Positions 1 to 10,851 of a DNA stretch of 64,000 nt are shown here, piece after piece. The stretch lies in NCBI GenBank assembly GCA_022969815.1, contig GCA_022969815.1_4535.1; one strand, 5' to 3'. A program made the position numbers and the translations under genes. How positions within the stretch are numbered: position 1 is the first letter of the stretch; each line of letters begins with the position of its first letter. Under the pieces are notes generated by a model. The model saw only the letters and a program-made list of their open reading frames with translations, was not told the origin of the DNA and searched no databases. This DNA is from Escherichia coli (lineage in GTDB: Bacteria; Pseudomonadota; Gammaproteobacteria; Enterobacterales; Enterobacteriaceae).

Positions 1-36
1 CAGTTTTTCTACGGTAACAATAGCGATAGTTTCCAT
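1..36 (-). CDS. 5' end of a leftward early gene that runs off the window edge (partial)
   Basis: ATG at 34-36 (minus) reads METIAIVTVEKL..., preceded by GAGGA SD and by promoter-hairpin module at 55-111. Confidence 0.3.
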   Translation of the reverse strand, partial: METIAIVTVEKL

Positions 37-54
37 TTTGTTTTCCTCATTATC

Positions 55-111
55 GGCGGCACCATTGCCGCCCTACGCATTAAATATAAGTTATCTAAGA
101 GATTAGATCAA
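55..111 (-). promoter_or_regulatory. early promoter-hairpin module E1
   Basis: hairpin GGCGGCACCATTGCCGCC 55-72; -10 TTATAT (rc of 84-89); -35 TTGATC (rc of 106-111); 16-nt spacer. Confidence 0.55.
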
Positions 112-114
112 GGA

Positions 115-306
115 TTATTTTGTAAAGATTACAGCTTCATCAAAATTTTCAACATAGTAAGCAAGCTCTTCATTTGCTGCAACCAGTTGTAAAAGTTGGT
201 CGTAAGATAATCCATTGATCCCCTCTTCATTGTTTAAAGCCTCGATGATTTCATCAACGGGGGCAAAAAACATGTTATTCGATTCCAGGTAGCTGATAGT
301 TTTCAT
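115..306 (-). CDS. hypothetical early protein, 63 aa
   Basis: ATG at 304-306, purine-rich SD, own promoter-hairpin module upstream; no recognisable motif. Confidence 0.6.
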   Translation of the reverse strand: MKTISYLESNNMFFAPVDEIIEALNNEEGINGLSYDQLLQLVAANEELAYYVENFDEAVIFTK

Positions 307-328
307 AATGTTTTACCTTTTTCGGGGA

Positions 329-384
329 GCGGCACCATTGCCGCCCTACGTGGTAAATATTAGCACACTGGCGATCGGTGTCAA
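329..384 (-). promoter_or_regulatory. early promoter-hairpin module E2
   Basis: -35 TTGACA (rc 379-384), 16-nt spacer, -10 TAATAT (rc 357-362), then CACGTAGGG and hairpin GCGGCA-CCAT-TGCCGC (329-344) at predicted 5' end of the 115..306 mRNA. Confidence 0.7.
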
Positions 385-390
385 TACTTT

Positions 391-777
391 TTATTCAATA
401 TAAATCAAATTATCTTCACCAATGTAAGCCGACACGTTCGGCATAAACTTAGCTGCATTTGTTAGGCGGTTCGCCGTGTTAGTGGTGTATACTTCAGGGC
501 GATCCCAGAATCCTACGCCGTGACCGTTACGGGTAAAATGTAAATCATTGCCGATCTGGTTGGCTGTAGCGCCGTCGCTCATTGCTTCCGCAATAGCGGC
601 AAGATTAGCATTAATAAAGGCTGTTACATCCTGGGCGATCCGTTCATCCGCACCAGGAGAAAAATCATAATCGTCTAAGTTATCAATAAAATCACCTTCG
701 TGATCCCTGGCGGATTCAGCAAAAATAAAGGCTTCTTTATAACCGTTGATGATTTCAATAATGATTTCTGTTTTCAT
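391..777 (-). CDS. hypothetical early protein, 128 aa
   Basis: ATG 775-777; ATGA overlap with upstream gene; no recognisable motif. Confidence 0.65.
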   Translation of the reverse strand: MKTEIIIEIINGYKEAFIFAESARDHEGDFIDNLDDYDFSPGADERIAQDVTAFINANLAAIAEAMSDGATANQIGNDLHFTRNGHGVGFWDRPEVYTTNTANRLTNAAKFMPNVSAYIGEDNLIYIE

Positions 778-989
778 GCTGTACGCTCGACAATAATAAT
801 AGTTTGCGGGATCTCGTTTTCTACTACTAACAAGGCTTTTTTCTGTGTAATAGATATTTTAACACGTTGTAACGTAGCGGTAAAGTCTTTCATTTCGTTA
901 TGTGCGGACTTGCTGCAATGCCAGATCTCAGGCTTACCGACTTGCAAACCGCGTAAAAATTCCGTTTTGCCTGTTTTGTTCGTGATCAT
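774..989 (-). CDS. hypothetical early protein, 71 aa
   Basis: track ORF 774..998 begins with GTG; in-frame ATG at 987-989 with AAGGTG SD chosen. Confidence 0.5.
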   Translation of the reverse strand: MITNKTGKTEFLRGLQVGKPEIWHCSKSAHNEMKDFTATLQRVKISITQKKALLVVENEIPQTIIIVERTA

Positions 990-999
990 TTGTTTCACC

Positions 1000-1104
1000 T
1001 TACCCGATACCGTGGGAAGATAGGATCATATTAGCCATAGTTGCAACCACTCCAACCGATAACGCCAGGCCAACTACTGCAACCGTGAAAATTTTCTCTA
1101 ACAT
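1000..1104 (-). CDS. small hydrophobic peptide, 34 aa (not in ORF track)
   Basis: ATG 1102-1104, GAGGG SD, reads MLEKIFTVAVVGLALSVGVVATMANMILSSHGIG, sits directly after promoter module E3. Confidence 0.35.
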   Translation of the reverse strand: MLEKIFTVAVVGLALSVGVVATMANMILSSHGIG

Positions 1105-1122
1105 GATGCTACCCTCATTAAT

Positions 1123-1185
1123 GGGCGTTGCCTTATTGCCCCGCCCTACAAGATGAATACTACGCGCTTACTTTGCTGTTGTCAA
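1123..1185 (-). promoter_or_regulatory. early promoter module E3 (variant leader)
   Basis: -35 TTGACA (rc 1180-1185), 17-nt spacer, -10 TAGTAT (rc 1157-1162), GC stem GGGCG...CGCCC 1123-1146; leader shares CAAGATGAATACTACG with E20. Confidence 0.55.
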
Positions 1186-1350
1186 CAACGGGCGAAAAAA
1201 CTTTTTGATCTGGCTTGCTGTTAGGCGCATATCTGCTTTGAGCGTTGCCAGGCGATAAGCTTTACCCTTGATCAGTTTATGGTGTCCGGTGCCGTTGCCG
1301 ATGATAACATCAATTTCACACAATACACGGGAATAATCAATCTTTTTCAT
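1168..1350 (-). CDS. hypothetical early protein, 60 aa
   Basis: ATG 1348-1350, module E4 upstream. Confidence 0.5.
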   Translation of the reverse strand: MKKIDYSRVLCEIDVIIGNGTGHHKLIKGKAYRLATLKADMRLTASQIKKFFRPLLTTAK

Positions 1351-1370
1351 GTTGTTACCTTTCGTGTTAT

Positions 1371-1427
1371 GGGGGCGCTTGTCGCCCCCTGTCTGATAAA
1401 GATAATCCCTTTCGGGATATCTGTCAA
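1371..1427 (-). promoter_or_regulatory. early promoter-hairpin module E4
   Basis: hairpin GGGGGCGCTTGTCGCCCCC 1371-1389; -10 TATCTT (rc 1399-1404); -35 TTGACA (rc 1422-1427). Confidence 0.55.
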
Positions 1428-1433
1428 CTATTT

Positions 1434-1619
1434 TTATTGTACGGTGTGGCGATCGCTGTATTCAGCGTAAAACTCACATCCATCGTCACGGCTATCAAGT
1501 TTAACGATATATCCACTATTCCAACGTTCAACTGATACTACCGGATAATACTTCCCGTTAAGGATATTTTTCACCAGGTCGCCTTTTACCAGTTCTTTCG
1601 TTTTCTTATAAGTAGTCAT
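1434..1619 (-). CDS. hypothetical early protein, 61 aa
   Basis: track ORF 1434..1700 runs through promoter hairpin E5; internal ATG at 1617-1619 chosen (MTTYKKTKELVKG...). Confidence 0.55.
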   Translation of the reverse strand: MTTYKKTKELVKGDLVKNILNGKYYPVVSVERWNSGYIVKLDSRDDGCEFYAEYSDRHTVQ

Positions 1620-1639
1620 GATGTTTTCTCTTCTGTTTT

Positions 1640-1700
1640 GCGGTGGACCGTTCCGCCGCCCTATGTGGTAAACTATACGCGCCAACGTTCCAGGCGTCAA
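1640..1700 (-). promoter_or_regulatory. early promoter-hairpin module E5
   Basis: hairpin 1640-1659; -10 TATAGT (rc 1672-1677); -35 TTGACG (rc 1695-1700); 17-nt spacer. Confidence 0.65.
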
Positions 1701-1730
1701 GCATATTTTTAAAATTATTTTCTACAACGT

Positions 1731-1757
1731 AAAACGCCCCAGCATAAACCAGGGCGC
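1731..1757 (-). terminator. candidate intrinsic terminator after gene 1818..2045
   Basis: minus-sense hairpin GCGCCC-loop-GGGCG followed by UUUU. Confidence 0.45.
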
Positions 1758-1817
1758 ACTAATTAAATCAGATAGGGGATTGCATTGCCTTACACCTTTT
1801 AGGCTGTTAGCTGGCGA

Positions 1818-2045
1818 TTAGTAGCGTAGGATGTTTACGGATTCATCGCGCCCTAAAATATTCTCATATCTGTTTCCCCTTCCTTCGTACCAGATGATCA
1901 CGGTGTCAGGATCAAACGGATTGTTTTCGATAGCCGTTACCTTGCAGAAGTCATAAGACGGGAACGGATAAACGCCAACCTGTAAACGCGCCCGATCTCC
2001 TGGGCGAATAGTAGCGGCACGATCTGCAATGATATTGTTATACAT
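1818..2045 (-). CDS. hypothetical early protein, 75 aa
   Basis: ATG 2043-2045; no recognisable motif. Confidence 0.55.
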   Translation of the reverse strand: MYNNIIADRAATIRPGDRARLQVGVYPFPSYDFCKVTAIENNPFDPDTVIIWYEGRGNRYENILGRDESVNILRY

Positions 2046-2169
2046 GGTGCACCCCCTTAATATTTTTCTTTTTCTTTGCTTCCAACCGTCTAAGGTTACG
2101 GCTTGACTTATTGCGCAAGGCGCTTAGATCGTCGTACCCTTTCCATGCTTGCATATCTTTCGGATTCAT
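2038..2169 (-). CDS. small basic protein, 43 aa (not in ORF track)
   Basis: ATG 2167-2169 with AAGGGGGG SD 12 nt after the stop of 2181..2459; reads MNPKDMQAWKGYDDLSALRNKSSRNLRRLEAKKKKNIKGVHHV. Confidence 0.4.
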   Translation of the reverse strand: MNPKDMQAWKGYDDLSALRNKSSRNLRRLEAKKKKNIKGVHHV

Positions 2170-2180
2170 GTTATCCCCCC

Positions 2181-2459
2181 TTAACGATTATAAACATTAT
2201 GGATGGCTTCAAAGGCAAGATGACCATAAGCCGCCAAATCGGGATTGATCCAAGCGTTATCCAACATCGTTTCAAGGACTGTGGAATCATCGTATAAAGC
2301 ATCATAGAAATCTGCACGGATGATCGTTTCAATGTCGTCCGGTGTTAGTTTGTCGTTCAACTTGCACACTGTTTCAACGTCAACACCAATTTTCCAATTT
2401 TGTAAATTAGTGGTTAACATTGTTTTCATTTCTTCGGTTGTTAATTTAACGATGGTCAT
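2181..2459 (-). CDS. hypothetical early protein, 92 aa
   Basis: ATG 2457-2459, module E6 upstream. Confidence 0.6.
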   Translation of the reverse strand: MTIVKLTTEEMKTMLTTNLQNWKIGVDVETVCKLNDKLTPDDIETIIRADFYDALYDDSTVLETMLDNAWINPDLAAYGHLAFEAIHNVYNR

Positions 2460-2483
2460 GATTTTTTCTCTCTTCTGTTAGGC

Positions 2484-2538
2484 GGGGCGCTTGTCGCCCC
2501 TATGTGATACATCTTATCAGGTTGATTCAGCTTGTCAA
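2484..2538 (-). promoter_or_regulatory. early promoter-hairpin module E6
   Basis: hairpin GGGGCGCTTGTCGCCCC 2484-2500; -10 TAAGAT (rc 2511-2516); -35 TTGACA (rc 2533-2538). Confidence 0.65.
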
Positions 2539-2539
2539 A

Positions 2540-2719
2540 CTATTTGTTAGCCGGATTATATGCCAGGACCGCGCCGCTCGCTTTCACGCTTTCCGTTTCA
2601 TAGTTGCGCAGATCGTTTTCTGTAAGATTGAGCGCGATCACTTCCTCGATCTCAATGCCAGTGGCAAGGGCGATCTCTTTAATGATGTTTGATGATCTGA
2701 TAACGTTTACTGTTTTCAT
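2540..2719 (-). CDS. hypothetical early protein, 59 aa
   Basis: internal ATG 2717-2719 with AAGGTG SD chosen over the longer track ORF 2540..2776. Confidence 0.5.
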   Translation of the reverse strand: MKTVNVIRSSNIIKEIALATGIEIEEVIALNLTENDLRNYETESVKASGAVLAYNPANK

Positions 2720-2729
2720 GGTGTGCACC

Positions 2730-2849
2730 TTATAAGATGATTGATAAGATAGTGATAACGAAAGCGATAACACCAACGGCGATCGTAGTCTTACGCCCTT
2801 CAGATACTGCCGGATTCTCTACCGTGTATTCTACTGTGTATTTGTTCAT
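2730..2849 (-). CDS. small C-terminally membrane-anchored peptide, 39 aa (not in ORF track)
   Basis: ATG 2847-2849, GAGAGG SD, reads MNKYTVEYTVENPAVSEGRKTTIAVGVIAFVITILSIIL; follows module E7. Confidence 0.35.
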   Translation of the reverse strand: MNKYTVEYTVENPAVSEGRKTTIAVGVIAFVITILSIIL

Positions 2850-2872
2850 TGTGTTATCCTCTCGCTTGCTTT

Positions 2873-2929
2873 GGGAACTATTCCCGCCGCCCTATGAATT
2901 AAATATACACTATCCCAAAATGATTGCAA
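2873..2929 (-). promoter_or_regulatory. early promoter-hairpin module E7
   Basis: hairpin GGGAACTATTCCC 2873-2885; -10 TATATT (rc 2902-2907); -35 TTGCAA 2924-2929. Confidence 0.5.
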
Positions 2930-2948
2930 GCCTTTTTCTAAATTATTT

Positions 2949-3233
2949 TTATGCAGTAAACAGACCATCATTTACAACGGCGGCGATGATCTCCCGCGCC
3001 ATTGATTCAGGAAACGGGGCGCTATAGTCCTGGCTTGTCTCGTCGCTGTCTGTTACCCAATGATAAGCCAACGAGTAAAAGCCTTTACTCCCTGTTTTCA
3101 GTGAAACGATGATCACTCGGTTAAGTCCATCGGTAAACGTTGCCGTTAATGTGCTATCATCTTGCGTCATATTGGACAAGTAAGCGGCATCATTAACCAG
3201 GGAAAACAGTAGCACCGTGTTAGCTTTAACCAT
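2949..3233 (-). CDS. hypothetical early protein, 94 aa
   Basis: track ORF start lies inside hairpin E8; in-frame ATG 3231-3233 with GAGGA SD chosen. Confidence 0.55.
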   Translation of the reverse strand: MVKANTVLLFSLVNDAAYLSNMTQDDSTLTATFTDGLNRVIIVSLKTGSKGFYSLAYHWVTDSDETSQDYSAPFPESMAREIIAAVVNDGLFTA

Positions 3234-3253
3234 GATTTGATCCTCAAACGGGC

Positions 3254-3310
3254 GCGGCACCATTGCCGCCCTACGTAATACAGTTTACCCTATTTCTTCC
3301 AAAAAGCAAG
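3254..3310 (-). promoter_or_regulatory. early promoter-hairpin module E8
   Basis: hairpin GCGGCACCATTGCCGC 3254-3269; -10 TAAACT (rc 3282-3287); -35 TTGCTT (rc 3304-3309). Confidence 0.5.
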
Positions 3311-3490
3311 TTTATTTGCAATTGGTGACAAATAACGTTTACCCGCGTAAAACAGTACAGCGACACTAACCACGGCGGCGATCTCATGCATAACCGACGG
3401 GAAACGAGTATCATAATAAGATCCAATAATAGCAATAGCGGCAACGGCTGCAACGTCGATAATGATTTTTTCTTGTTTTGCGGTGATCAT
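3290..3490 (-). CDS. small membrane protein, 66 aa
   Basis: ATG 3488-3490; hydrophobic stretch DVAAVAAIAIIGSYY and VVSVAVLFYAG. Confidence 0.55.
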   Translation of the reverse strand: MITAKQEKIIIDVAAVAAIAIIGSYYDTRFPSVMHEIAAVVSVAVLFYAGKRYLSPIANKLAFWKK

Positions 3491-3514
3491 AATATTTACC
3501 TTTTTGTATGGTGG

Positions 3515-3571
3515 GGGGAACTATTCCCCGCCTGATGTAATACAGTTTAACAGGTCCGGTTATGGTGTCAA
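3515..3571 (-). promoter_or_regulatory. early promoter-hairpin module E9
   Basis: hairpin GGGGAACTATTCCCC 3515-3529; -10 TAAACT (rc 3544-3549); -35 TTGACA (rc 3566-3571). Confidence 0.6.
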
Positions 3572-3577
3572 CCACTT

Positions 3578-3763
3578 TTAAAGATATTTTATGTTGATAA
3601 CGTTTTCCGGTTTAACCTGGTTGTGATAAGCATCAATGTAAATCAAACCATCATCGGACACGCCCAGGATCACGCCTTGCGCAATAAAACCGTATTGGTC
3701 GCGGTAACGTGCTGCCACTTTGTTCGCTGCGTTGTAGGCTGTTTTAATCTCGTTTAAGGTCAT
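3578..3763 (-). CDS. hypothetical early protein, 61 aa
   Basis: ATG 3761-3763. Confidence 0.5.
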   Translation of the reverse strand: MTLNEIKTAYNAANKVAARYRDQYGFIAQGVILGVSDDGLIYIDAYHNQVKPENVINIKYL

Positions 3764-3793
3764 GTGCTGTTATACTCTCGTTAGATATAAGAA

Positions 3794-3812
3794 AGGGCGC
3801 TATTTGCGCCCT
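3794..3812. terminator. intergenic hairpin, candidate attenuator
   Basis: AGGGCGC-TATTT-GCGCCCT with T-rich flank. Confidence 0.35.
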
Positions 3813-3821
3813 TGATTTGTT

Positions 3822-3968
3822 TTAGTCTTCCAGGTCCATCCATGCACGTTTCTCGGTGCGGTCGCGCTTAGTTTTGTTGCGCTTGTCGCCCTTGCGGATC
3901 ACTTCCTCATTCCACGCTGCGCGTGTTTTGGAGGATTGGATTTTTTCGGCGCGATTAGATGTATTCAT
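3822..3968 (-). CDS. small basic protein, 48 aa (not in ORF track)
   Basis: ATG 3966-3968, AGAGGA SD, reads MNTSNRAEKIQSSKTRAAWNEEVIRKGDKRNKTKRDRTEKRAWMDLED; follows module E10. Confidence 0.4.
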   Translation of the reverse strand: MNTSNRAEKIQSSKTRAAWNEEVIRKGDKRNKTKRDRTEKRAWMDLED

Positions 3969-3992
3969 GATGTTTCCTCTTTTTAGTTGTGA

Positions 3993-4049
3993 GCGGCACC
4001 ATTGCCGCCCTACGTGTTTAAATTTACTTTATTGCTTGATGCCTGTCAA
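3993..4049 (-). promoter_or_regulatory. early promoter-hairpin module E10
   Basis: hairpin 3993-4008; -10 TAAATT (rc 4021-4026); -35 TTGACA (rc 4044-4049); 17-nt spacer. Confidence 0.65.
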
Positions 4050-4066
4050 CTACTTTTAAAAACTTT

Positions 4067-4420
4067 TTATTCGTGGGAAAGTGTAAGGATCACCCCTGCA
4101 ATATATAACCAATAGTTTTCCCTTTCTTTCTGGATCTTGTTTTCGCTACTACGTTCGTTAATGTACCCCCAGGCTGTTAACAACCGATCTACTTCCCAAT
4201 ACTCGAAAGCTATATTAATATTTGACGGCAATCCTTGTAACCATGATGCTATTGCTCTGATAATATTATGATCGTAACGTTTTTGATTATCGGTATACCA
4301 ATACTCGGATTTAAAACAGCGCATCAATTCCGCGATCTTCTCTTTATCTTCTGTGATGCCATACTCGCTATAATCAATTGAGGCCAGAATATAAAGTTTA
4401 ATTGCATTCTGTGCTTTCAT
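4067..4420 (-). CDS. hypothetical early protein, 117 aa
   Basis: ATG 4418-4420, module E11 upstream. Confidence 0.65.
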   Translation of the reverse strand: MKAQNAIKLYILASIDYSEYGITEDKEKIAELMRCFKSEYWYTDNQKRYDHNIIRAIASWLQGLPSNINIAFEYWEVDRLLTAWGYINERSSENKIQKERENYWLYIAGVILTLSHE

Positions 4421-4441
4421 GTTGTCTCTCTTCTGTTGTGA

Positions 4442-4497
4442 GCGGCACCATTGCCGCCCTATGTGTTACATCTTACCGGATTTTTAAAACTTGTCAA
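4442..4497 (-). promoter_or_regulatory. early promoter-hairpin module E11
   Basis: hairpin 4442-4457; -10 TAAGAT (rc 4470-4475); -35 TTGACA (rc 4492-4497). Confidence 0.65.
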
Positions 4498-4718
4498 TCA
4501 TTTTTTACTATCATTTGATACCCTGTTTCCAGGTTAGTAAACACCGTGATCCCGTCCTGGCGTTCACTCATAAGCAAGCAAGGCGCTAACATCCTTCCTA
4601 CTTCCTTGCACTCGTTATAAGCGGCGGTAATGTCTCCCGCTGCCTTGTCTTCTGTGGTGAATGTATCGTTCACGTAAACTTGACCAGCGACAACGGCGAC
4701 AATAGCGAAAGTGATCAT
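4494..4718 (-). CDS. hypothetical protein with hydrophobic N-terminus, 74 aa
   Basis: internal ATG 4716-4718 (MITFAIVAVVAGQVYV...) chosen over the longer track ORF 4494..4790. Confidence 0.5.
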   Translation of the reverse strand: MITFAIVAVVAGQVYVNDTFTTEDKAAGDITAAYNECKEVGRMLAPCLLMSERQDGITVFTNLETGYQMIVKND

Positions 4719-4796
4719 AATGTTTTTCTCTTTATGTGTTTCATTTCGATTAGTTGATAATACGGCAATTCGCAGATTAGTCTTTAGCAATTCATG

Positions 4797-5015
4797 CTAT
4801 TTACTCACAACAATATCGAAAACAAATTTTTCTTTGTTGTCTAAGCTCACGTATCCGATTCGACCACGCAATCCGTGAGTAGTGCCGTATTCGTAACCAT
4901 CCAGACCTTTAACCTTCCAATCCATGCCCATTAAAACCGCATTATATTTCTGACCAACTACAAAAGCGCCACCAGTTGATTCAATGCAAATAACTTTAAT
5001 TTTACGGATTGCCAT
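4797..5015 (-). CDS. hypothetical early protein, 72 aa
   Basis: ATG 5013-5015. Confidence 0.55.
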   Translation of the reverse strand: MAIRKIKVICIESTGGAFVVGQKYNAVLMGMDWKVKGLDGYEYGTTHGLRGRIGYVSLDNKEKFVFDIVVSK

Positions 5016-5054
5016 TTTCTTTCTCTCTCTGTGGTAATTGGTTTCTCTTCTCTA

Positions 5055-5090
5055 TAACGCCCATTATAGGGCGTTATAACGAAAAGTCAA
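5055..5090 (-). promoter_or_regulatory. early promoter with palindrome over the -10 region
   Basis: -35 TTGACT (rc 5085-5090), 16-nt spacer, -10 TATAAT (rc 5063-5068), palindrome TAACGCCC-ATTA-TAGGGCGTTA 5055-5076. Confidence 0.6.
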
Positions 5091-5091
5091 A

Positions 5092-5259
5092 TTATTTTTT
5101 ACGGCTTAAGGTGCCCAGGTTATCAGCGTGGCGCAAACCAGGGAAGATCCACGCGCCTGATGCATCTTTCACAGGGGCTTTAAGCGTAGCGCCCAGGTTG
5201 GCGGCGTTAACTTTACGGGCAACGTTGCGAGCGGCTTCACGGGTAGTAAAAGTGATCAT
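5092..5259 (-). CDS. small protein, 55 aa (not in ORF track)
   Basis: ATG 5257-5259, reads MITFTTREAARNVARKVNAANLGATLKAPVKDASGAWIFPGLRHADNLGTLSRKK; follows module E12. Confidence 0.4.
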   Translation of the reverse strand: MITFTTREAARNVARKVNAANLGATLKAPVKDASGAWIFPGLRHADNLGTLSRKK

Positions 5260-5283
5260 GATGTTTTCCTCTTCTCTTTGTTA

Positions 5284-5345
5284 GGCGGTGGACCATTCCG
5301 CCGCCTTGATGTAATACAGTTTACTTTATTTTGTTAAGATTGCAA
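5284..5345 (-). promoter_or_regulatory. early promoter-hairpin module E12
   Basis: hairpin 5284-5305; -10 TAAACT (rc 5318-5323); -35 TTGCAA 5340-5345. Confidence 0.55.
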
Positions 5346-5351
5346 GTAGTT

Positions 5352-5567
5352 TTATGAAATAATTGTCAAAGTAAAATCATAATCTTTTGACAGTTTATAT
5401 TGCACCTTGTTACCGTATATGTCACCTTTACGTAAAGATCCACGGATACCGATAACATCCTTCACGTCTTTTAAATTTTTCACGCCTGTAATGTCTTTGT
5501 TGAAATACTCGTCATCTGAAAATAAAACTTGACTTGCATTTTTTAACAGTGTGCGGATATTAGCCAT
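5352..5567 (-). CDS. hypothetical early protein, 71 aa
   Basis: ATG 5565-5567. Confidence 0.55.
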   Translation of the reverse strand: MANIRTLLKNASQVLFSDDEYFNKDITGVKNLKDVKDVIGIRGSLRKGDIYGNKVQYKLSKDYDFTLTIIS

Positions 5568-5591
5568 TGAGATAATCTCTCTTTGTTGTGA

Positions 5592-5647
5592 GCGGCACCA
5601 TTGCCGCCCTACGTAATACAGTTTACTCTTTTTCTTTCCGGTGTCAA
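5592..5647 (-). promoter_or_regulatory. early promoter-hairpin module E13
   Basis: hairpin 5592-5607; -10 TAAACT (rc 5620-5625); -35 TTGACA (rc 5642-5647). Confidence 0.65.
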
Positions 5648-5656
5648 CAATCTTTT

Positions 5657-5884
5657 TCAGATTAATTCATCCAGGCATAACAGGCGATCAACGTTGAGAT
5701 CGGTCAGGCTGATGGTTGGCACCTGATAGGATTCGATGTACTCGACGCTCGCATATTCCCCAAAATTAGCAATAGCCCACTTATTCAAGATCTCACATAC
5801 ATCATTAATCTTTTTATTTGTTACAACTGCAATAACCTGGGAAGTGCCAACGGTGCCGGATACGCGAACAATATTGATAGCCAT
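5657..5884 (-). CDS. hypothetical early protein, 75 aa
   Basis: internal ATG 5882-5884 chosen; the longer track ORF runs into hairpin E14. Confidence 0.55.
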   Translation of the reverse strand: MAINIVRVSGTVGTSQVIAVVTNKKINDVCEILNKWAIANFGEYASVEYIESYQVPTISLTDLNVDRLLCLDELI

Positions 5885-5906
5885 GATTTTTCTCTCTTCG
5901 TTAGGC

Positions 5907-5961
5907 GGGGCGCTTGTCGCCCCTATGTGATACATCTTACACTAATTTTAAACGTTGTCAA
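5907..5961 (-). promoter_or_regulatory. early promoter-hairpin module E14
   Basis: hairpin 5907-5923; -10 TAAGAT (rc 5934-5939); -35 TTGACA (rc 5956-5961). Confidence 0.65.
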
Positions 5962-6056
5962 ATTATTTTCTATTTCTTCCGTAATAGCCCAATTTATGAT
6001 CTAAGCTAAAACGTTTTGTTAGATAGGTTGAACGATGTTTCATTTTTATGTCTCCT

Positions 6057-6296
6057 TTACATTCCAACCATAGCGGCGCGGATTGCAGTAGTGCTATATT
6101 TGAATCCGTCCGGTGTTTTATCTTGTCCAGTCTGTTCTAAAAATAACATCATATGACGGGCCGCATCATTGCGATTAGTGTTGTCGTTAATAAAATCCAG
6201 GGCCAACCGATACAATCCCTCATCGTTATTAATCCACAGGCTTACATTCCAATGAGTTTTGTTTTTGTGACCGTTGTACATTTTAGATTTAGCCAT
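6057..6296 (-). CDS. hypothetical early protein, 79 aa
   Basis: ATG 6294-6296. Confidence 0.55.
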   Translation of the reverse strand: MAKSKMYNGHKNKTHWNVSLWINNDEGLYRLALDFINDNTNRNDAARHMMLFLEQTGQDKTPDGFKYSTTAIRAAMVGM

Positions 6297-6317
6297 GATT
6301 TTTCTCTCTTTTTGTTA

Positions 6318-6379
6318 GGCGGTGGACCATTCCGCCGCCTTGATGTAATACAGTTTACTCTTTTTCTTCGTGCTGTCAA
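6318..6379 (-). promoter_or_regulatory. early promoter-hairpin module E15
   Basis: hairpin 6318-6339; -10 TAAACT (rc 6352-6357); -35 TTGACA (rc 6374-6379). Confidence 0.65.
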
Positions 6380-6385
6380 TGCTTT

Positions 6386-6751
6386 TTATAGATCTTTTTT
6401 ACGTTTAACATCGCTTGCATGACTGTATACAGTGATCCCATTGTCACGGCAAAAACGGGAAAGATACGCACCGCGTGAAAATTCCTTGCCCTCAAGGTTG
6501 ATAACCTTGCTAAATTCTTCCAGGGCGACGGTATCGAAATGATCACCATAACCATATTGAAACGGCACGTTAACCACTTCAACCAATTTACCGCAGATCT
6601 CAACGTCTACACTTAAAGAAAAATATGTATTACCGTAGGACTGTTGAAACCAGCGACGGGCGCTAATATGCACCGCCTCAATGCTGGATAATTCAATTTT
6701 AGCCGTGTTAGCCAGGGTAGCATAAGCGGAAACATTGATATTAATAGCCAT
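6386..6751 (-). CDS. hypothetical early protein, 121 aa
   Basis: ATG 6749-6751. Confidence 0.6.
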   Translation of the reverse strand: MAININVSAYATLANTAKIELSSIEAVHISARRWFQQSYGNTYFSLSVDVEICGKLVEVVNVPFQYGYGDHFDTVALEEFSKVINLEGKEFSRGAYLSRFCRDNGITVYSHASDVKRKKDL

Positions 6752-6777
6752 GATGATAATCTCTCTTTTTGGTTAGT

Positions 6778-6829
6778 GGGAAGTATTCCCGATAAAAGTT
6801 ATTATGCTTATACTATCACTCATTGTCAA
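6778..6829 (-). promoter_or_regulatory. early promoter-hairpin module E15b
   Basis: hairpin GGGAAGTATTCCC 6778-6790; -10 CATAAT (rc 6801-6806); -35 TTGACA (rc 6824-6829); 17-nt spacer. Confidence 0.6.
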
Positions 6830-6848
6830 TAGTATAAGACTAAAACTT

Positions 6849-7028
6849 TTAACGATAATCGTTATAGGCTTTATTGACCTGGCGAATGTAACATTCGAAA
6901 GCAAGATCAATGTATTCGTATTCACGCACATAATCACCATAGGTCACTACATACATTTTTAAAGTTTCCTCATAAGCCAGGAGGATCGAATCTAAACCTA
7001 TAATCTCAGTTTTTGCAATGATAGCCAT
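6849..7028 (-). CDS. small protein, 59 aa (not in ORF track)
   Basis: ATG 7026-7028, reads MAIIAKTEIIGLDSILLAYEETLKMYVVTYGDYVREYEYIDLAFECYIRQVNKAYNDYR; follows module E16. Confidence 0.4.
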   Translation of the reverse strand: MAIIAKTEIIGLDSILLAYEETLKMYVVTYGDYVREYEYIDLAFECYIRQVNKAYNDYR

Positions 7029-7049
7029 GATGTTAACCTTTTTATTGTT

Positions 7050-7106
7050 GGCGGCACCATTGCCGCCCTACGTGATAAACTATAACAGAATTTTAAACAG
7101 TGTCAA
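7050..7106 (-). promoter_or_regulatory. early promoter-hairpin module E16
   Basis: hairpin 7050-7067; -10 TATAGT (rc 7079-7084); -35 TTGACA (rc 7101-7106). Confidence 0.65.
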
Positions 7107-7116
7107 ACGTTTTTTC

Positions 7117-7362
7117 TTAGTTTGCGAAATATGGCGCGGCGGCTGATGCCGTTAAGCTCCAAGTGATTTGACTATCGATCAAGTATTCTTCATTCTTGAT
7201 CCGCACGGTATCAATCGAGAAGTTACTAAAAGGCTTACTTTTAATTTTACGAATAACCGTTACACGGCGATCACCTTTCATCTCTTTTAACTGAATCCAG
7301 GCGTAACCTTTTTCATTGACAAAAATTTCATTGTGGTTGGTGATAGATGATAGGTGTTTCAT
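7117..7362 (-). CDS. hypothetical early protein, 81 aa
   Basis: internal ATG 7360-7362 chosen; the longer track ORF runs into hairpin E17. Confidence 0.55.
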   Translation of the reverse strand: MKHLSSITNHNEIFVNEKGYAWIQLKEMKGDRRVTVIRKIKSKPFSNFSIDTVRIKNEEYLIDSQITWSLTASAAAPYFAN

Positions 7363-7383
7363 GATTTCTCTCTTCTGTTTTGA

Positions 7384-7443
7384 GCGGTGGACCATTCCGC
7401 CGCCCTATGTGTTACATCTTACTACTTTTTTAAACATTGTCAA
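7384..7443 (-). promoter_or_regulatory. early promoter-hairpin module E17
   Basis: hairpin 7384-7403; -10 TAAGAT (rc 7416-7421); -35 TTGACA (rc 7438-7443). Confidence 0.65.
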
Positions 7444-7451
7444 GGATATTT

Positions 7452-7733
7452 TTAACTATATGATCCACATCGTTCGCAGTAGTGATCATCGTCGTCATCT
7501 GCTACCTGGCTGATAAAGTGATCAACCTTTGATTTCAGGTTTTTATAGTCGTTTTCGACTTCCTGTAGTCGTCGCTGGTAATATTCCAGGGCTTGCACAT
7601 ATGCCGCTTGTTCGGTTTTCGCTTGCATTGCTAAATTCATGCCGCGCGTTTCATCATACAGCCAATACCCATCATTGCACCCGCTAATTGATAGTGTAGG
7701 GCTTAGTTTTTCGTGGCTGATTGCCTTGCTCAT
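7452..7733 (-). CDS. hypothetical early protein with C-terminal CxxC, 93 aa
   Basis: track start is GTG; in-frame ATG 7731-7733 with AAGGTGG SD chosen; coiled-coil-like middle. Confidence 0.55.
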   Translation of the reverse strand: MSKAISHEKLSPTLSISGCNDGYWLYDETRGMNLAMQAKTEQAAYVQALEYYQRRLQEVENDYKNLKSKVDHFISQVADDDDDHYCERCGSYS

Positions 7734-7743
7734 AGTGTCCACC

Positions 7744-7935
7744 TTACAAAATGACTACGTTATCTTTTTCGTGCAGTGTGGCGGTAATGTTGCGCCCTTT
7801 GTCGCACATTAGCGAGATCTTGCGGTGATGCGGTGGCACTTTCTCGATGTGCGCTACTGTCATTGTGATCCGGTGCAATTCTACTTTGTCACCTGCTTTC
7901 AATGTTGCTACGTTGCCAGTGATATTTTTAAACAT
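7744..7935 (-). CDS. hypothetical early protein, 63 aa
   Basis: in-frame ATG 7933-7935 with AAGGGG SD chosen over the longer track ORF. Confidence 0.5.
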   Translation of the reverse strand: MFKNITGNVATLKAGDKVELHRITMTVAHIEKVPPHHRKISLMCDKGRNITATLHEKDNVVIL

Positions 7936-7945
7936 GGTGCGCCCC

Positions 7946-8056
7946 TTACTTGAAAATGATTGTTGTGATAACTGCCACGGTGATCCAAAATGGAACAACC
8001 AAGATAATAGCGTTAATAGTTCCAACTGTCAAACTATTTTCTTTCTTGATCATCAT
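7946..8056 (-). CDS. small membrane peptide, 36 aa
   Basis: track ORF 7946..8176 starts with GTG inside hairpin E18; ATG 8054-8056 with AAGGA SD gives MMIKKENSLTVGTINAIILVVPFWITVAVITTIIFK. Confidence 0.3.
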   Translation of the reverse strand: MMIKKENSLTVGTINAIILVVPFWITVAVITTIIFK

Positions 8057-8169
8057 GTTTTCCTTACAGTGTCCAAAGAATGATTTCAAGTGCAGCACGG
8101 AAACCAGGAATAAAATTGATTGCAAAAAACAGGGAAGTAGTAGACATTTTTCTATCCTTTCAGTTGTGA

Positions 8170-8225
8170 GCGGCACCGTTGCCGCCCTATGAGTTAACTA
8201 TAAGTGATCACGTTTTACCTGTCAA
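8170..8225 (-). promoter_or_regulatory. early promoter-hairpin module E18
   Basis: hairpin GCGGCACCGTTGCCGC 8170-8185; -10 TTATAG (rc 8198-8203); -35 TTGACA (rc 8220-8225). Confidence 0.55.
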
Positions 8226-8779
8226 CCTAAATCATCAAAATAAAGATAATTTTTTTCGGCTTCTTTCTTCTCTTCCTGCGTTGCCTCAAAGACTGGGAGG
8301 AAGTGATCAAAGGCTATGCACTCAACCGCGTGATCGTCTTCCTCTTCCTGGTCTTCCTCCTGGGCTATGGCTGCAATTTTGGCCAATTTCCTTTCAGCCT
8401 GGATAAGCTTACCATCTAATACGCTTTTTGCAGTACTGTACGCCGTCCAGGTGATGCGCTTACTTTCGAGCGCGGCATCAAGCGCCGCTATCTTGCTGGG
8501 GTATTCATCCAGGACACGAAAAGCCGGATCTACCTTGTACAGCGGATTATCTTTCGCGCCGTCGCTATCATCTGCGGCGCTTGCAATGTCAGCGTTACCA
8601 TTCGCCAGCCAACCAGGGCGATCGCTGCGTGTTTTGGTATTCCCATGACTACGCGCCGATCTGTTGCCTACTTGCTCGCCACTATAACCAGGAGCGTGAT
8701 CGATCATGTCATCCGGTACAATACGCGGATCATTAGCGTCATGTTTTACCCAGGACTGGATCACATATTCGCGCCCCAT
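8222..8779 (-). CDS. hypothetical early protein with acidic patches, 185 aa
   Basis: ATG 8777-8779, AAGGGG SD; acidic run QEEDQEEEDD. Confidence 0.6.
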   Translation of the reverse strand: MGREYVIQSWVKHDANDPRIVPDDMIDHAPGYSGEQVGNRSARSHGNTKTRSDRPGWLANGNADIASAADDSDGAKDNPLYKVDPAFRVLDEYPSKIAALDAALESKRITWTAYSTAKSVLDGKLIQAERKLAKIAAIAQEEDQEEEDDHAVECIAFDHFLPVFEATQEEKKEAEKNYLYFDDLG

Positions 8780-9039
8780 TATACACCCCTTTTAACAATC
8801 ATTTCACACACAAAAAATAAACTGGCGGAATCACGGCAAGGGTAGAAAGATGTGCGATAATCTCTCACCCCTGCTTTTATGATCTCCGTGGTTTTACCTG
8901 ATAGCACATTGTAAATAGTGTAACTTGTCGGACTGTTTTTATATACCTTGCCAGGGTAGATCATAACATAACGAGCAAGGTTATAAAATTCCTCGTTACG
9001 AAAAGCTATGATCTTCCCGCATACCTTAAGAAAATGCAC
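8779..9039 (-). CDS. hypothetical early protein, 86 aa (GTG start)
   Basis: GTG 9037-9039 with AGGGGG SD; alternative ATG at 8962-8964 lacks an SD. Confidence 0.4.
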   Translation of the reverse strand: MHFLKVCGKIIAFRNEEFYNLARYVMIYPGKVYKNSPTSYTIYNVLSGKTTEIIKAGVRDYRTSFYPCRDSASLFFVCEMIVKRGV

Positions 9040-9048
9040 GTTAGCCCC

Positions 9049-9321
9049 CTACAGCAAAAAGTTTACTTGTCTTGCTGTTAATGTAGTATCAACCATCTTC
9101 GGGCTTTTATAATCCACAAAGCGCGCGGTTTTTTCAATAGCGAAACCGAGATAATCTTGCTTGTTGAAATTACATTCTTTCTTAAATGTCTCCCGTGCAA
9201 TGGCGATCGCTGCGTCCAGGGATAAACGCCCGTCAATATTGATATTAGCGAAAGATCCGCCACCGCTCATAGGTTTACCAGTTGTGCCCGTTACGATCAT
9301 TGTTGCGCTATATGATGCCAT
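9049..9321 (-). CDS. hypothetical early protein, 90 aa
   Basis: internal ATG 9319-9321 chosen; the longer track ORF runs into hairpin E19. Confidence 0.55.
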   Translation of the reverse strand: MASYSATMIVTGTTGKPMSGGGSFANINIDGRLSLDAAIAIARETFKKECNFNKQDYLGFAIEKTARFVDYKSPKMVDTTLTARQVNFLL

Positions 9322-9345
9322 GATGATAATCTCTCTTAGTTGTGA

Positions 9346-9405
9346 GCGGTGGACCATTCCGCCGCTCTACGTGATACATCTTATCAGGTTGTTGCCTGTT
9401 GTCAA
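9346..9405 (-). promoter_or_regulatory. early promoter-hairpin module E19
   Basis: hairpin 9346-9365; -10 TAAGAT (rc 9378-9383); -35 TTGACA (rc 9400-9405). Confidence 0.65.
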
Positions 9406-10285: not shown

Positions 10286-10400
10286 TATTTGTAAAGAAAT
10301 GTAAAGATAAAATAATCGCTTGCTTTCCTGGCTGGATCTGTTATTCTTATTACATGGCGAGGGGACACGGGAGCGCGAGATAATCACCGGACCTGCCCGT

Positions 10401-10640
10401 CATTCTCTAAATGAGAATGATTATCATTTACCTTATTGAATAAAAATCAATCTTATTTGGATAGTTGAATGAGAATCAATCTCATTCGCAAGGTGAGAAT
10501 AAATCTCATTTACGCTATTGAATGCGAATCATTCGTATTTACCATGTTGAATGAGAATCATTATCATTTCCGATGCGAAATGAGAATCATTATCATTCTC
10601 ATTCGTATTTCGATTTTAAGTGAGAATAATTCTCATTTCG
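10401..10640. repeat. array of about 7 inverted repeats on GAGAAT/ATTCTC and AATGAG/CTCATT half-sites
   Basis: CATTCTC-TAAAT-GAGAATG (10401-10419), AATGAGAAT-N7-ATTCTCATT, GAGAATAATTCTC (10622-10634) and others. Confidence 0.7.
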
Positions 10641-10653
10641 GTAATTTTCACGC

Positions 10654-10711
10654 AAACTTTAGAATTTGCTTTTCAACTTTCACTTTTGTAAAAGCAAAAA
10701 AACTTTAAATA
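10654..10711. repeat. 58-bp direct repeat, copy R1
   Basis: AAACTTTAGAATTTG...TTTTGTAAA...TTTAAATA, about 80% identical to R2. Confidence 0.7.
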
Positions 10712-10757
10712 CCTGGTGCGCGCGACTTTTTTAAAAATTTTTCTCGGTTTTTTTGTT

Positions 10758-10787
10758 TTGCAATCTGGTCCACCCATTTGAGATAAT
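10758..10787 (+). promoter_or_regulatory. extended -10 promoter
   Basis: -35 TTGCAA 10758-10763, 18-nt spacer, TGaGATAAT 10779-10787; predicted start at the beginning of R2. Confidence 0.45.
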
Positions 10788-10793
10788 GTGTGT

Positions 10794-10851
10794 AAACTTT
10801 AGAATTTGGTTTTGGATTCTCGTTTTTGTAAACTCATAAAAAGTTTAAATA
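10794..10851. repeat. 58-bp direct repeat, copy R2
   Basis: second copy of the R1 unit. Confidence 0.7.

Follow-up and report, generated by a model that had tools for sequence, protein, structure and literature searches.

The first 9500 nucleotides of the window, which is the whole stretch of 64,000 nucleotides analysed here, form the early-gene region of an Escherichia coli myovirus of the Stephanstirmvirinae (phAPEC8/phi92-like), in which every gene lies on the minus strand. A megablast search with this region returned 240 phage records, with Phapecoctavirus best at 88–95%. Between the larger genes there are odd gaps of 135–365 nt, and the question is whether these are occupied by genes too short for an ORF track that begins at 60 aa. 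An initial annotation had proposed eight such micro-ORFs. Very probably they are genuine protein-coding early genes of this phage. This reading is based on sequence anatomy, conservation, purifying selection and family membership, and we infer transcription timing, translation, the role of the hairpins and function. Once the micro-ORFs are added, the gaps shrink to the usual 56–99 nt, corresponding to one promoter module, or to about 10 nt, as between coupled cistrons.

Anatomy of the micro-ORFs

All eight listed micro-ORFs (Table 1) lie on the minus strand, start with ATG and carry a purine-rich SD 6–9 nt upstream (8/8), so that the proposed start codons, SDs and operon punctuation were borne out at the coordinates given. 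In six cases the micro-ORF is the leading cistron after a repeated module of a sigma70 promoter and a GC hairpin, and 2038–2169 and 7946–8056 are translationally coupled downstream cistrons. The stop codon TAA is followed after 10 nt by the ATG of the next gene for 1000–1104 (gene 774–989), 2730–2849 (gene 2540–2719) and 7946–8056, by the terminator-like hairpin for 3822–3968, and by the next promoter for 5092–5259 and 6849–7028. The ATG of 2038–2169 lies 11 nt past the stop of 2181–2459, and its end overlaps the next gene by ATGTATAA. For 8064–8147, TAA overlaps the SD of 7946–8056 (TAAGGAAAACATG), with 7 nt from TAA to ATG.

ORFs of at least 26 aa with an ATG and an SD were sought in the nine spaces of 100 nt or more that separate the larger genes. 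The gene strand held 9 and the opposite strand 0, compared with 0.94 ± 0.95 in 1000 shuffles, none of which reached 9. Seven of the nine are listed ORFs; the others are a 26-aa ORF missing from the list and an ORF that overlaps 6849–7028 out of frame. The suggestion that many of the products are hydrophobic or highly basic also held: four (1000, 2730, 7946 and 8064) are hydrophobic and contain a 19-residue window resembling a transmembrane segment (Kyte-Doolittle 1.7–2.65), three are strongly basic (2038, 3822 and 5092; pI 10.1–11.5), and 6849 alone is acidic.

Table 1. Promoter modules, terminator-like hairpin and micro-genes of the early region
Feature	Position	Strand	Description
Module P1185	1105..1185	-	TTGACA-17-TAGTAT, GC hairpin, then SD
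34-aa hydrophobic micro-gene	1000..1104	-	First cistron behind P1185; SD GAGGGT
43-aa basic micro-gene	2038..2169	-	Second cistron of the P2538 operon; SD AAGGGGGG
Module P2929	2850..2929	-	TTGCAA-16-TATATT and hairpin
39-aa micro-gene, C-terminal transmembrane segment	2730..2849	-	First cistron behind P2929; SD GAGAGGA
Module P4049	3969..4049	-	TTGACA-17-TAAATT, GGGCGGCAAUGGUGCCGCUC hairpin
48-aa basic micro-gene	3822..3968	-	Monocistronic, between P4049 and terminator; SD AGAGGA
Terminator-like hairpin	3793..3813	-	8 bp, 6 GC, T-rich tail; directly after stop of 3822–3968
Module P5345	5260..5345	-	TTGCAA-16-TAAACT, GGCGGCGGAAUGGUCCACCGCC hairpin
55-aa very basic micro-gene (pI 11.5)	5092..5259	-	Monocistronic behind P5345; SD AGAGGA
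26-aa basic micro-gene MKHRSTYLTKRFSLDHKLGYYGRNRK	5963..6043	-	Second cistron after 6057–6296; SD AAGGAG
Module P7106	7029..7106	-	TTGACA-16-TATAGT, extended -10 TG, and hairpin
59-aa acidic micro-gene	6849..7028	-	Monocistronic behind P7106; SD AAGGT
Module P8225	8148..8225	-	TTGACA-17-TATAGT, GGGCGGCAACGGUGCCGCUC hairpin
27-aa hydrophobic candidate micro-gene	8064..8147	-	First cistron behind P8225; SD AAAGGA, 7 nt before ATG
35/36-aa transmembrane micro-gene	7946..8056	-	Second cistron behind P8225; SD TAAGGA

Promoter-hairpin modules

Promoter-like sites with at least 10 of 12 matches number 20 on the minus strand and one on the plus strand. The module repeats fall into families D1–D5, and most modules carry, 18–24 nt ahead of the ATG, a hairpin whose stability is about -12 to -19 kcal/mol. 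This arrangement does not differ between micro-ORFs and long genes, and the stems have five or more distinct sequences. In Schickermooser the annotation has a terminator at the site homologous to 3793–3813.

The early region would be a string of about 20 short minus-strand cassettes, each with a near-consensus sigma70 promoter (TTGACA, 16–17 nt, TAnnnT), a stable GC-rich hairpin about 10 nt past the -10 box, a spacing that would put it at the transcript's 5' end or very close to it, and an unpaired purine-rich SD 18–24 nt after the hairpin, followed by the ATG. Immediately upon infection, host RNA polymerase would start from these promoters. Six micro-ORFs would simply be the first gene of a cassette, and 2038–2169, 7946–8056 and the unlisted 5963–6043 would be read as downstream cistrons by translational coupling.

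A similar arrangement is found in the PeSL (promoter-early stem-loop and ORFan) cassettes of the T4-type phages RB49 and phi1 (PMC2839356). Both consist of repeated intergenic cassettes in which a strong early promoter of sigma70-like type is joined to a GC-rich stem-loop, to an SD and to the beginning of a small gene that is often an orphan, and in both the genes between cassettes are mosaic, being present or absent among close relatives; the likeness is one of layout and implies no claim of sequence homology. The PeSL stem-loop lies most often between or overlapping the -35 and -10 boxes, and its ability to terminate transcription has been demonstrated (PMC2839356); here the stem-loop always follows the -10 box by about 10 nt. 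Most likely, the 5'-terminal hairpin would stabilise the short mRNAs and provide recombination homology, as in PeSL cassettes. A literature search on this phage group found no transcriptome studies and no ribosome-profiling or peptide data.

Conservation and prior annotation

Across related phages the reading frames are kept and purifying selection is evident for seven of the listed ORFs. These have intact frames and aligned starts in 8–15 of the relatives examined, including Justusliebigvirus and Klebsiella phages, with pN/pS of 0.17–0.52 in frame versus 0.75–2.7 in shifted frames, which contain stops in nearly every sequence. In codon usage, seven of the eight micro-ORFs score higher than 99% or more of the null ORFs, and 2038–2169 scores higher than 96%. 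In breadth of conservation 3822, 5092 and 7946, found at 15–16 of 16 loci, rank among the top genes of the region. Seven of the eight are thus supported as real small genes with their own SD, filling the gaps behind promoter modules, and the eighth, 8064–8147, is plausible.

Six of the eight match PHROGs end to end, namely 1000–1104 (phrog_14631, E 8.5e-22), 2038–2169 (phrog_31652, E 8.9e-28), 2730–2849 (phrog_10979 'membrane protein', E 9.2e-20), 3822–3968 (phrog_2490), 5092–5259 (phrog_13689, E 7.4e-33) and 6849–7028 (phrog_9374, E 2.7e-36). The small early genes annotated in Stephanstirmvirinae (phAPEC8, phi92-like) are the same genes, being CDSs of identical length at the same positions. 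The description of the micro-ORFs as hidden applies to the 60-aa ORF track, which omitted them, but not to the databases, as seven are already annotated in GenBank relatives and the exact sequences of these occur in public protein sets. The micro-ORF finding is correct but ordinary, since nearly all are already annotated in related phages.

Individual micro-genes

The frame 1000–1104 is intact in 8 relatives (91–100% identity, pN/pS 0.17), both other frames having stops in 8/8 sequences; its counterpart is an annotated 105-bp CDS in ESCO25 and PsgM04F, and the exact sequence is in NCBI. In 2038–2169, annotated in phiWec179, nieznany and phAPEC8, residues 1–35 are conserved in 8 relatives (pN/pS 0.20), and the C-terminus past a lysine-coding A-rich run is variable (34, 36 or 43 aa). 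The length of 2730–2849 is constant at 39 aa in 11 relatives down to 48% identity, with pN/pS of 0.52 in frame versus 1.1–1.2 shifted; an annotated 120-bp CDS is its counterpart in relatives. For 5092–5259 (16/16 loci, 69–96% identity, pN/pS 0.25), the AlphaFold2 model has a pLDDT of 80, and a fold search against the PDB gave no match. The model of 6849–7028 (pN/pS 0.34) reaches a pLDDT of 94.6 with four strands and a helix, a predicted fold common to small uncharacterised proteins of PBECO4, RaK2 and phiIBB-PF7A.

To judge from its sequence, 3822–3968 (15/16 loci, 63–100% identity, pN/pS 0.32) is a homologue of T7 gp1.1. It matches Pfam PF08200 (Phage_1_1) with 45.8 bits at a cut-off of 21, covering model positions 2–40 of 40, and BLASTP against T7 gp1.1 aligned 13/18 identical residues with the motif KGxKxNKTKRDRxxKRxW in both. 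The proteins are of 48 and 42 aa, respectively, and both strongly basic. Their settings differ: 3822–3968 forms a monocistronic cassette with a sigma70 promoter and a terminator of its own in a 150-kb myovirus, whereas the T7 gene lies upstream of gene 1.2 behind T7-RNAP promoters in an Autographiviridae podovirus. T7 gp1.1 has been described as of unknown function (PMC7064336).

A ninth micro-ORF, 5963–6043, was absent from the initial list of eight. It occurs in 36 phage records, mostly unannotated, of which 34 show 100% amino-acid identity, and its exact sequence is absent from the public protein set at these boundaries. Its codon-usage score is poor (-0.10 bits/codon). By its pattern of substitutions it is under very strong purifying selection: 11 variable codons are synonymous-only versus 2 with an amino-acid change, and variable sites by codon position are 1/2/11.

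A tblastn search finds 7946–8056 in 114 phage records, among them Klebsiella phages with 44–54% identity. It is present at 16/16 loci (pN/pS 0.45; shifted-frame stops in 16/16 and 15/16 sequences), and the annotations of ESCO25, nieznany, Schickermooser and nepoznato have it as a CDS of 96 or 105 bp. In most relatives the gene starts not at 8056 but at the second ATG (8053), which is likely the true start. A near-consensus sigma70 site lies inside 7946–8056 and could add to nucleotide conservation there; in the Klebsiella homologues the protein is kept and this site is lost.

The eighth listed ORF, 8064–8147, is an orphan confined to a single tight clade: it occurs in no more than 6 phage records and one IMG/VR contig, with 0–1 substitutions. 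Diverged copies were not found in metagenomes, no family matched in PHROG, Pfam or NCBIfam, and the ORF is absent from the public protein set at these boundaries. The few substitutions are uninformative on selection, and it looks coding by its SD, codon usage and position.

Alternative readings

Being so short, the frames might be untranslated 5' leaders, small RNAs or chance ORFs in long intergenic or regulatory spacers, as random ORFs of this length are generally common. An Rfam search found no family, where none was expected, which is compatible with RNA outside known families, and the evolutionary evidence is neutral for 8064–8147. This is extremely improbable given the third-position-biased variation in seven listed ORFs and the 26-aa ORF, a pN/pS that drops well below 1 in no frame but the proposed one, starts and lengths kept down to 36–48% protein identity, the excess of gene-strand ORFs over shuffles, and the two confident predicted folds (6849, 5092). 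For 8064–8147 in particular, translation might merely bring ribosomes to the SD of 7946–8056, the peptide itself being functionless. The overlap of its stop with that SD and the 7-nt spacer would fit, as would the lack of homologues elsewhere; all other relatives have the 7946 homologue driven straight from this module, which marks the 27-aa ORF as an insertion specific to the clade, placed between module and gene. Such a leader is nevertheless unlikely: at 0.39 bits/codon the codon usage is gene-like, the highest of the six frames and higher than in any of 199 null ORFs, the sequence is a plausible membrane helix, and small coupled cistrons in this region normally have functional products.

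The boundaries might also be wrong, the real genes being longer ORFs started in the hairpins, such as a 76-aa GTG ORF at 7946–8176 or a 52-aa version of 1000–1104. Public long versions exist, namely a 231-bp CDS in PsgM04F (equal to 7946–8176), a 159-bp CDS in Schickermooser and 52-aa cluster members, but this too is very improbable. The long starts fall, without an SD, in hairpin loops or arms or in -35/-10 boxes: the ATG of 2949–3263, 7117–7395 and 9049–9357 lies in a hairpin loop (GGCGGCA-ATGG-TGCCGC), the GTG of 7946–8176 in a hairpin 3' arm, the TTG of 1434–1700 is part of a -35 box, and the ATG of 5657–5935 overlaps a -10 box. The short start follows immediately upon the promoter module in most relatives, and in IMG/VR contig L016 a 1-nt insertion between 8064–8147 and 7946–8056 breaks the 76-aa frame and leaves both short ORFs intact. 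The initial view that several long track ORFs begin inside promoter hairpins was confirmed, and their trimming to internal starts was justified; the same holds for public records.

Possible roles of the products

Library and fold searches for a function gave none. The label of host-takeover or anti-defence microproteins, which rests only on size, charge and position in the early region, is not supported as stated. Phage small proteins of fewer than 100 aa are a widely recognised class, often membrane-active or basic, expressed early and shaping the phage-host interaction (PMC11323111); no single mechanism from this class could be tied by sequence or fold to any of the nine. Their products would comprise four single-pass membrane micro-proteins, four basic peptides, including the 26-aa ORF and the T7 gp1.1 homologue, and one well-folded acidic mini-domain; together these would most likely act early in infection on the host cell envelope and on host nucleic-acid or translation machinery.

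Micro-ORFs of the early region

The initial annotation had proposed that the gaps between promoter modules and listed genes are filled by ORFs below 60 aa which its ORF track omits. ATG, Shine-Dalgarno (SD) sequence and the spacing to neighbours ascribed to them were present for all eight listed ORFs, and the SD lies at proper spacing before the start in these eight as well as in an unlisted ORF of 26 aa (see Table). Six of the eight are the first cistron behind a module, a repeated unit of sigma70 promoter and GC-rich hairpin, and share the hairpin-to-ATG distance of the long genes. Gaps between genes include 135, 178, 229, 286, 303, 336 and 365 nt when the micro-ORFs are ignored and measure 56–99 nt (one module) or about 10 nt when they are counted. 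Nine ORFs of at least 26 aa with ATG and SD were found on the gene strand (nine gaps of at least 100 nt) and none on the other strand. The observation is correct and well beyond chance, as 1000 shuffles of the gaps of at least 100 nt gave 0.94 ± 0.95 ORFs versus the nine observed. Two off-frame ORFs overlapping 6849–7028 (6773–6931 and 6773–6940) were dismissed as by-products.

Table. Micro-ORFs of the early region and ORFs with doubtful starts (window coordinates)
Coordinates	Strand	Placement or track start	Pooled pN/pS	Likely start
1000–1104	minus	first cistron behind module	0.17	
2038–2169	minus	starts 11 nt after stop of 2181–2459; overlaps next gene by ATGTATAA	0.20	
2730–2849	minus	first cistron behind module	0.52	
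3822–3968	minus	first cistron behind module	0.32	
5092–5259	minus	first cistron behind module	0.25	
5963–6043	minus	26 aa, basic, MKHRSTYLTKRFSLDHKLGYYGRNRK; SD AAGGAG; from systematic gap scan, not in initial annotation		
6849–7028	minus	first cistron behind module	0.34	
7946–8056	minus	starts 7 nt past TAA of 8064–8147, which forms part of its SD	0.45	
8064–8147	minus	first cistron behind module		
2949–3263	minus	hairpin-loop ATG (3263)		SD-preceded ATG 3233
7117–7395	minus	hairpin-loop ATG (7395)		SD-preceded ATG 7362
9049–9357	minus	hairpin-loop ATG (9357)		SD-preceded ATG 9321
7946–8176	minus	hairpin-arm GTG (8176)		SD-preceded ATG 8053
1434–1700	minus	-35 TTG		SD-preceded ATG 1619
5657–5935	minus	ATG overlapping -10 box		SD-preceded ATG 5884

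Megablast of window positions 1–9000 matched 240 phage records. The best matches were Phapecoctavirus/Stephanstirmvirinae genomes with 88–95% identity (phiWec179/181/186, ECO340P1 and PsgM04F), each covering about 40–62% of the query in several pieces. All plausible genes of the early region lie on the minus strand, and this is the ORFan-rich early-gene region of an E. coli myovirus of about 150 kb from the phAPEC8/phi92 group. The nearest fully annotated relative (OR584014.1) is labelled 'Pseudomonas phage PsgM04F', and other matches carry the names of Campylobacter, Acinetobacter and Serratia phages. These oddly labelled phages share about 86–95% DNA identity and many near-identical proteins with E. 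coli Phapecoctavirus genomes, and such host labels look doubtful.

Conservation and synonymous constraint were analysed in 15 related early regions (Phapecoctavirus, Justusliebigvirus and Klebsiella phages) and one IMG/VR contig. Seven of the eight listed ORFs are conserved with frame-specific purifying selection, as is 5963–6043, and frame, start and length are kept in all of them; 8064–8147 has near-identical copies only. Homologues of the seven with aligned ATG, SD and intact frame were present in 8–15 relatives, down to 36–48% protein identity, with an excess of third-position variation. The two shifted frames of the same alignments gave pN/pS of 0.75–2.7 and contain stops in every sequence for six of the ORFs; for 7946–8056 the figure is 15 or 16 of 16. 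A codon-usage log-odds score trained on the window's long genes and compared with 199 null ORFs placed the listed frame best of six for each listed ORF, and the score exceeded at least 99% of the null ORFs for seven and 96% for 2038–2169. AlphaFold2 yielded a confident model for 6849–7028 (pLDDT 94.6, four strands and a helix) and a fair one for 5092–5259 (pLDDT 80). According to a presence/absence matrix, 3822–3968, 5092–5259 and 7946–8056 occur in 15–16 of 16 loci, above most longer neighbours, and are therefore core early genes. Literature searches found no report of ribosome occupancy, translation products or small-gene expression for the phi92/phAPEC8-like group.

Thus, the gene-model part of the first interpretation is right, but 'hidden' applies to the 60-aa track and not to PHROG families, GenBank relatives or public protein sets. 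Six listed ORFs match PHROG families end to end, and relatives have CDSs at the same places and of the same sizes (105, 111/132, 120, 147, 168, 180 and 96/105 bp). For six ORFs the exact sequence, and for 7946–8056 the 35-aa form, could already be found in protein sets of NCBI, ENA or JGI; a 151-kb contig carries two of these matches as E. coli locus tags (MOO17_11195 and MOO17_11215). The 7946–8056 family was found by tblastn in 114 phage records. The micro-ORFs are ordinary, already catalogued small early genes, with the exception of two ORFs below 30 aa, one listed and one unlisted.

Inside 7946–8056 lies a near-consensus sigma70 site (8004–8032, minus strand; TTGACA-17-TATTAT, 11/12) within the stretch coding for the conserved SLTVGTINAII, which might act as an internal promoter for the next gene (7744–7935). 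That this site (read from 8032 to 8004) accounts for the conservation of the ORF was rejected because Klebsiella homologues keep the peptide motif and lose the site.

Taking one hydrophobic stretch of about 19 residues with a mean Kyte-Doolittle value above 1.6 as the mark of a single-pass membrane protein, four micro-proteins are predicted to belong to this class (best 19-residue windows: 1000–1104, 2.34; 2730–2849, 2.65; 7946–8056, 2.65; 8064–8147, 1.71). For 2038–2169, conservation is limited to residues 1–35, and in the C-terminal third the protein ends after an A-rich run coding for lysine. The versions seen in relatives are 34, 36 or 43 aa long, of which the 43-aa form overlaps the next gene, and these length variants apparently stem from indels in the A-rich run.

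Two ORFs below 30 aa

The 26-aa ORF 5963–6043 is placed 13 nt after the TAA of 6057–6296 and ends just before the next -35 box. In 10 genomes, which give 8 distinct nucleotide sequences, variation is purely synonymous at 11 codons and alters the amino acid at 2; the variable sites by codon position are 1/2/11. By tblastn the ORF was present in 36 phage records across two genera, 34 of them at 100% amino-acid identity. The site is without a feature in most annotated GenBank records, and the public protein collection does not contain the exact peptide. The ORF scores poorly for codon usage, which shows how limited this test is for ORFs so short.

Occurrence of the 27-aa ORF 8064–8147 was limited to six phage records and an IMG/VR contig, whose copies are near-identical and show a single substitution (S2F) over 84 nt. 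Viral and metagenome contigs scanned with degenerate patterns (FAINFIPGF) contained no diverged copy, only one identical IMG/VR copy and three unrelated chance matches in metagenomes. Its codon usage is gene-like (0.39 bits/codon, above all null ORFs), it has a strong SD and a membrane-helix-like sequence, and its distance from the hairpin is standard. Translation of 8064–8147 is fairly probable, and the product may be less important than coupling to the next gene. Every other relative has its 7946–8056 homologue driven directly by the same module, so that the 27-aa ORF represents a clade-specific insertion between module and gene.

PsgM04F annotates here an alternative 76-aa GTG ORF (7946–8176). 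This candidate was rejected as a real gene, as it starts in a hairpin arm and its fused frame is broken in the IMG/VR contig by a 1-nt insertion in the spacer between 8064–8147 and 7946–8056, with both short ORFs left intact. In the same contig, the first of two tandem start codons of the 7946–8056 homologue is changed from ATG to ATC. It is a tentative proposal, a little short of an even chance, that 5963–6043 and 8064–8147, both too small for the size limits of gene callers, are functional early products missing from every public protein set at these boundaries.

Promoter-hairpin modules and ORF starts

A repeat finder detected a 40–76-nt unit in families of 9–15 copies, and a consensus scan counted 20 sigma70 sites with at least 10/12 matches on the minus strand versus 1 on the plus strand. 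The minus-strand modules run in the order TTGACA, 16–17 nt, TAAGAT/TAAACT/TATAGT, about 10 nt, GC-rich hairpin, CACAAC/CTAAC, purine-rich SD and ATG. When modules were folded singly, most formed a hairpin (about -12 to -19 kcal/mol), which in most cases ends 18–24 nt ahead of the ATG, the SD being unpaired. At least five distinct stem sequences occur (GGGCGGCA/UGCCGCUC, GGCGGCGGA/UCCACCGCC, GGGGCG/CGCCCC, GGGGAA/UUCCCC and GGGAA/UUCCC), which argues for structure over a fixed protein-binding sequence. A MAFFT alignment of 19 modules, in which different stem types were misaligned, for that reason yielded no consensus structure with RNAalifold, and separate folding revealed the hairpins. A search of Rfam returned no family match (one sub-threshold hit, E 0.49, and nothing relevant), and literature searches found no description of the modules in phi92/phAPEC8-like phages. 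Both elements are already marked in the phAPEC8 GenBank record, the hairpin as 'PHIRE promoters' (20 nt) and the sigma70 part as 'MEME host promoters'. At phAPEC8 7423–7442, 8951–8970 and similar loci, the feature noted as 'putative promoter determined with PHIRE' corresponds to a 20-nt hairpin (GTAGGGCGGCAATGGTGCCG) instead of a promoter, and immediately upstream of it are the real sigma70 boxes.

The closest described architecture is the promoter-early stem-loop (PeSL) cassette of T4-type phages, where small ORFans follow a strong early promoter (sigma70-like), a stem-loop and an SD; this cassette mediates modular shuffling (PMC2839356). As in PeSL cassettes, a repeated intergenic unit with sigma70-like promoter, stem-loop and SD is found before small genes. 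In these modules the stem-loop sits downstream of the -10 box and would therefore be at the mRNA 5' end. In E. coli mRNA decay, 5'-terminal stem-loops guard against RNase E. Gene content is patchy among close relatives, both by megablast coverage and in the presence/absence matrix, and this mosaic, together with the inserted 27-aa cistron, is compatible with cassette shuffling. The promoter of gene 4797–5015 (5063–5090; TTGACT-16-TATAAT) has its -10 box in the loop of a hairpin (ATAACGCCC-TATAAT-GGGCGTTAT), a layout unlike the other modules and nearer to one PeSL subclass, that with a stem-loop overlapping the -10 box. Just past the early cassettes, at 10400–10640 and 10654–10851, there are an array in which a 22-nt unit (GAATGAGAATCATTATCATTTC-like) recurs about eight times, mostly at 29-nt distance, and a pair of 58-nt repeats 140 nt apart. 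Phage alia has annotated repeat_regions at the apparently corresponding place, and the array looks iteron-like and may be an origin or regulatory array.

It had also been claimed that several long ORFs begin inside promoter hairpins, and this was borne out for 2949–3263, 7117–7395, 9049–9357 and 7946–8176. The commonest hairpin (GGCGGCA-ATGG-TGCCGC) has the loop AATGG followed by TGCCGC and thereby offers an in-frame ATG and GTG to gene callers. The 2949–3263 homologue appears in most public records as the 315-bp hairpin-start version and in ZCKP1 as a 285-bp version, the 9049–9357 homologue as a 309-bp version in phAPEC8, phiWec188 and PsgM04F, and metagenome proteins beginning 'MVPAP...' show the same artefact. 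The hairpin-embedded starts in many public records are probably wrong, and a start at the hairpin-loop ATG would add a spurious N-terminal extension such as MVP...

Functional assignment

The product of 3822–3968 matches Pfam PF08200 (45.8 bits, cut-off 21, E 8.4e-12, model positions 2–40 of 40), and all 11 of its homologues with precomputed Pfam domains carry this family. BLASTP against T7 gp1.1 gave 13/18 identical residues in the C-terminal basic motif KGxKxNKTKRDRxxKRxW (E 2e-7, single comparison). By sequence, 3822–3968 is a T7 gp1.1 homologue. The context differs from that of T7 gp1.1, a class II gene beside gene 1.2 with T7-RNAP promoters, as 3822–3968 forms, within a myovirus, a sigma70 cassette that has a terminator of its own; context lies outside the Pfam definition. 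Gp1.1 has been described as a small protein of unknown function, which together with Ocr shut off host protein synthesis (PMC7064336).

Small uncharacterised phage proteins share the fold of 6849–7028 (BFVD); they come from T7-like podophages and from the jumbo phages PBECO4 and RaK2. Homologues of this 59-aa protein in the 350-kb jumbo phages EJP2 and PBECO4 have 76–78% identity, and the gene has crossed between widely differing phage groups. Nothing beyond a sub-threshold SecE match came from NCBIfam, Foldseek against PDB gave no match with E <1 for the 5092–5259 or 6849–7028 models, and the BFVD fold search gave only uncharacterised small phage proteins. Pfam, PHROGs, NCBIfam, PDB and BFVD yielded nothing of characterised function, and no characterised relative among anti-defence or host shut-off proteins. 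Functional leads are limited to the gp1.1 family and the PHROG category 'moron, auxiliary metabolic gene and host takeover' for the 2730–2849 family. Since nothing was assigned beyond gp1.1 and the relatives of the 6849–7028 fold, calling them 'host-takeover or anti-defence' proteins is a guess, reasonable in view of position, size and charge, rather than a result.

Implications

The main consequence is one of quality control, as a 60-aa cut-off conceals about one quarter of the early-region genes (9/33), and three of those concealed (3822–3968, 5092–5259 and 7946–8056) belong to the subfamily's most widely conserved early genes. Modest leads are the PeSL-like cassette layout outside T4-type phages, a T7 gp1.1 homologue in a large myovirus and a very strongly constrained 26-aa peptide missing from most annotations. 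The two exceptions below 30 aa, 8064–8147 and 5963–6043, merit experiment. If functional, 5963–6043 would be among the most constrained Stephanstirmvirinae early genes and a candidate for an effector that acts directly on a conserved host target.
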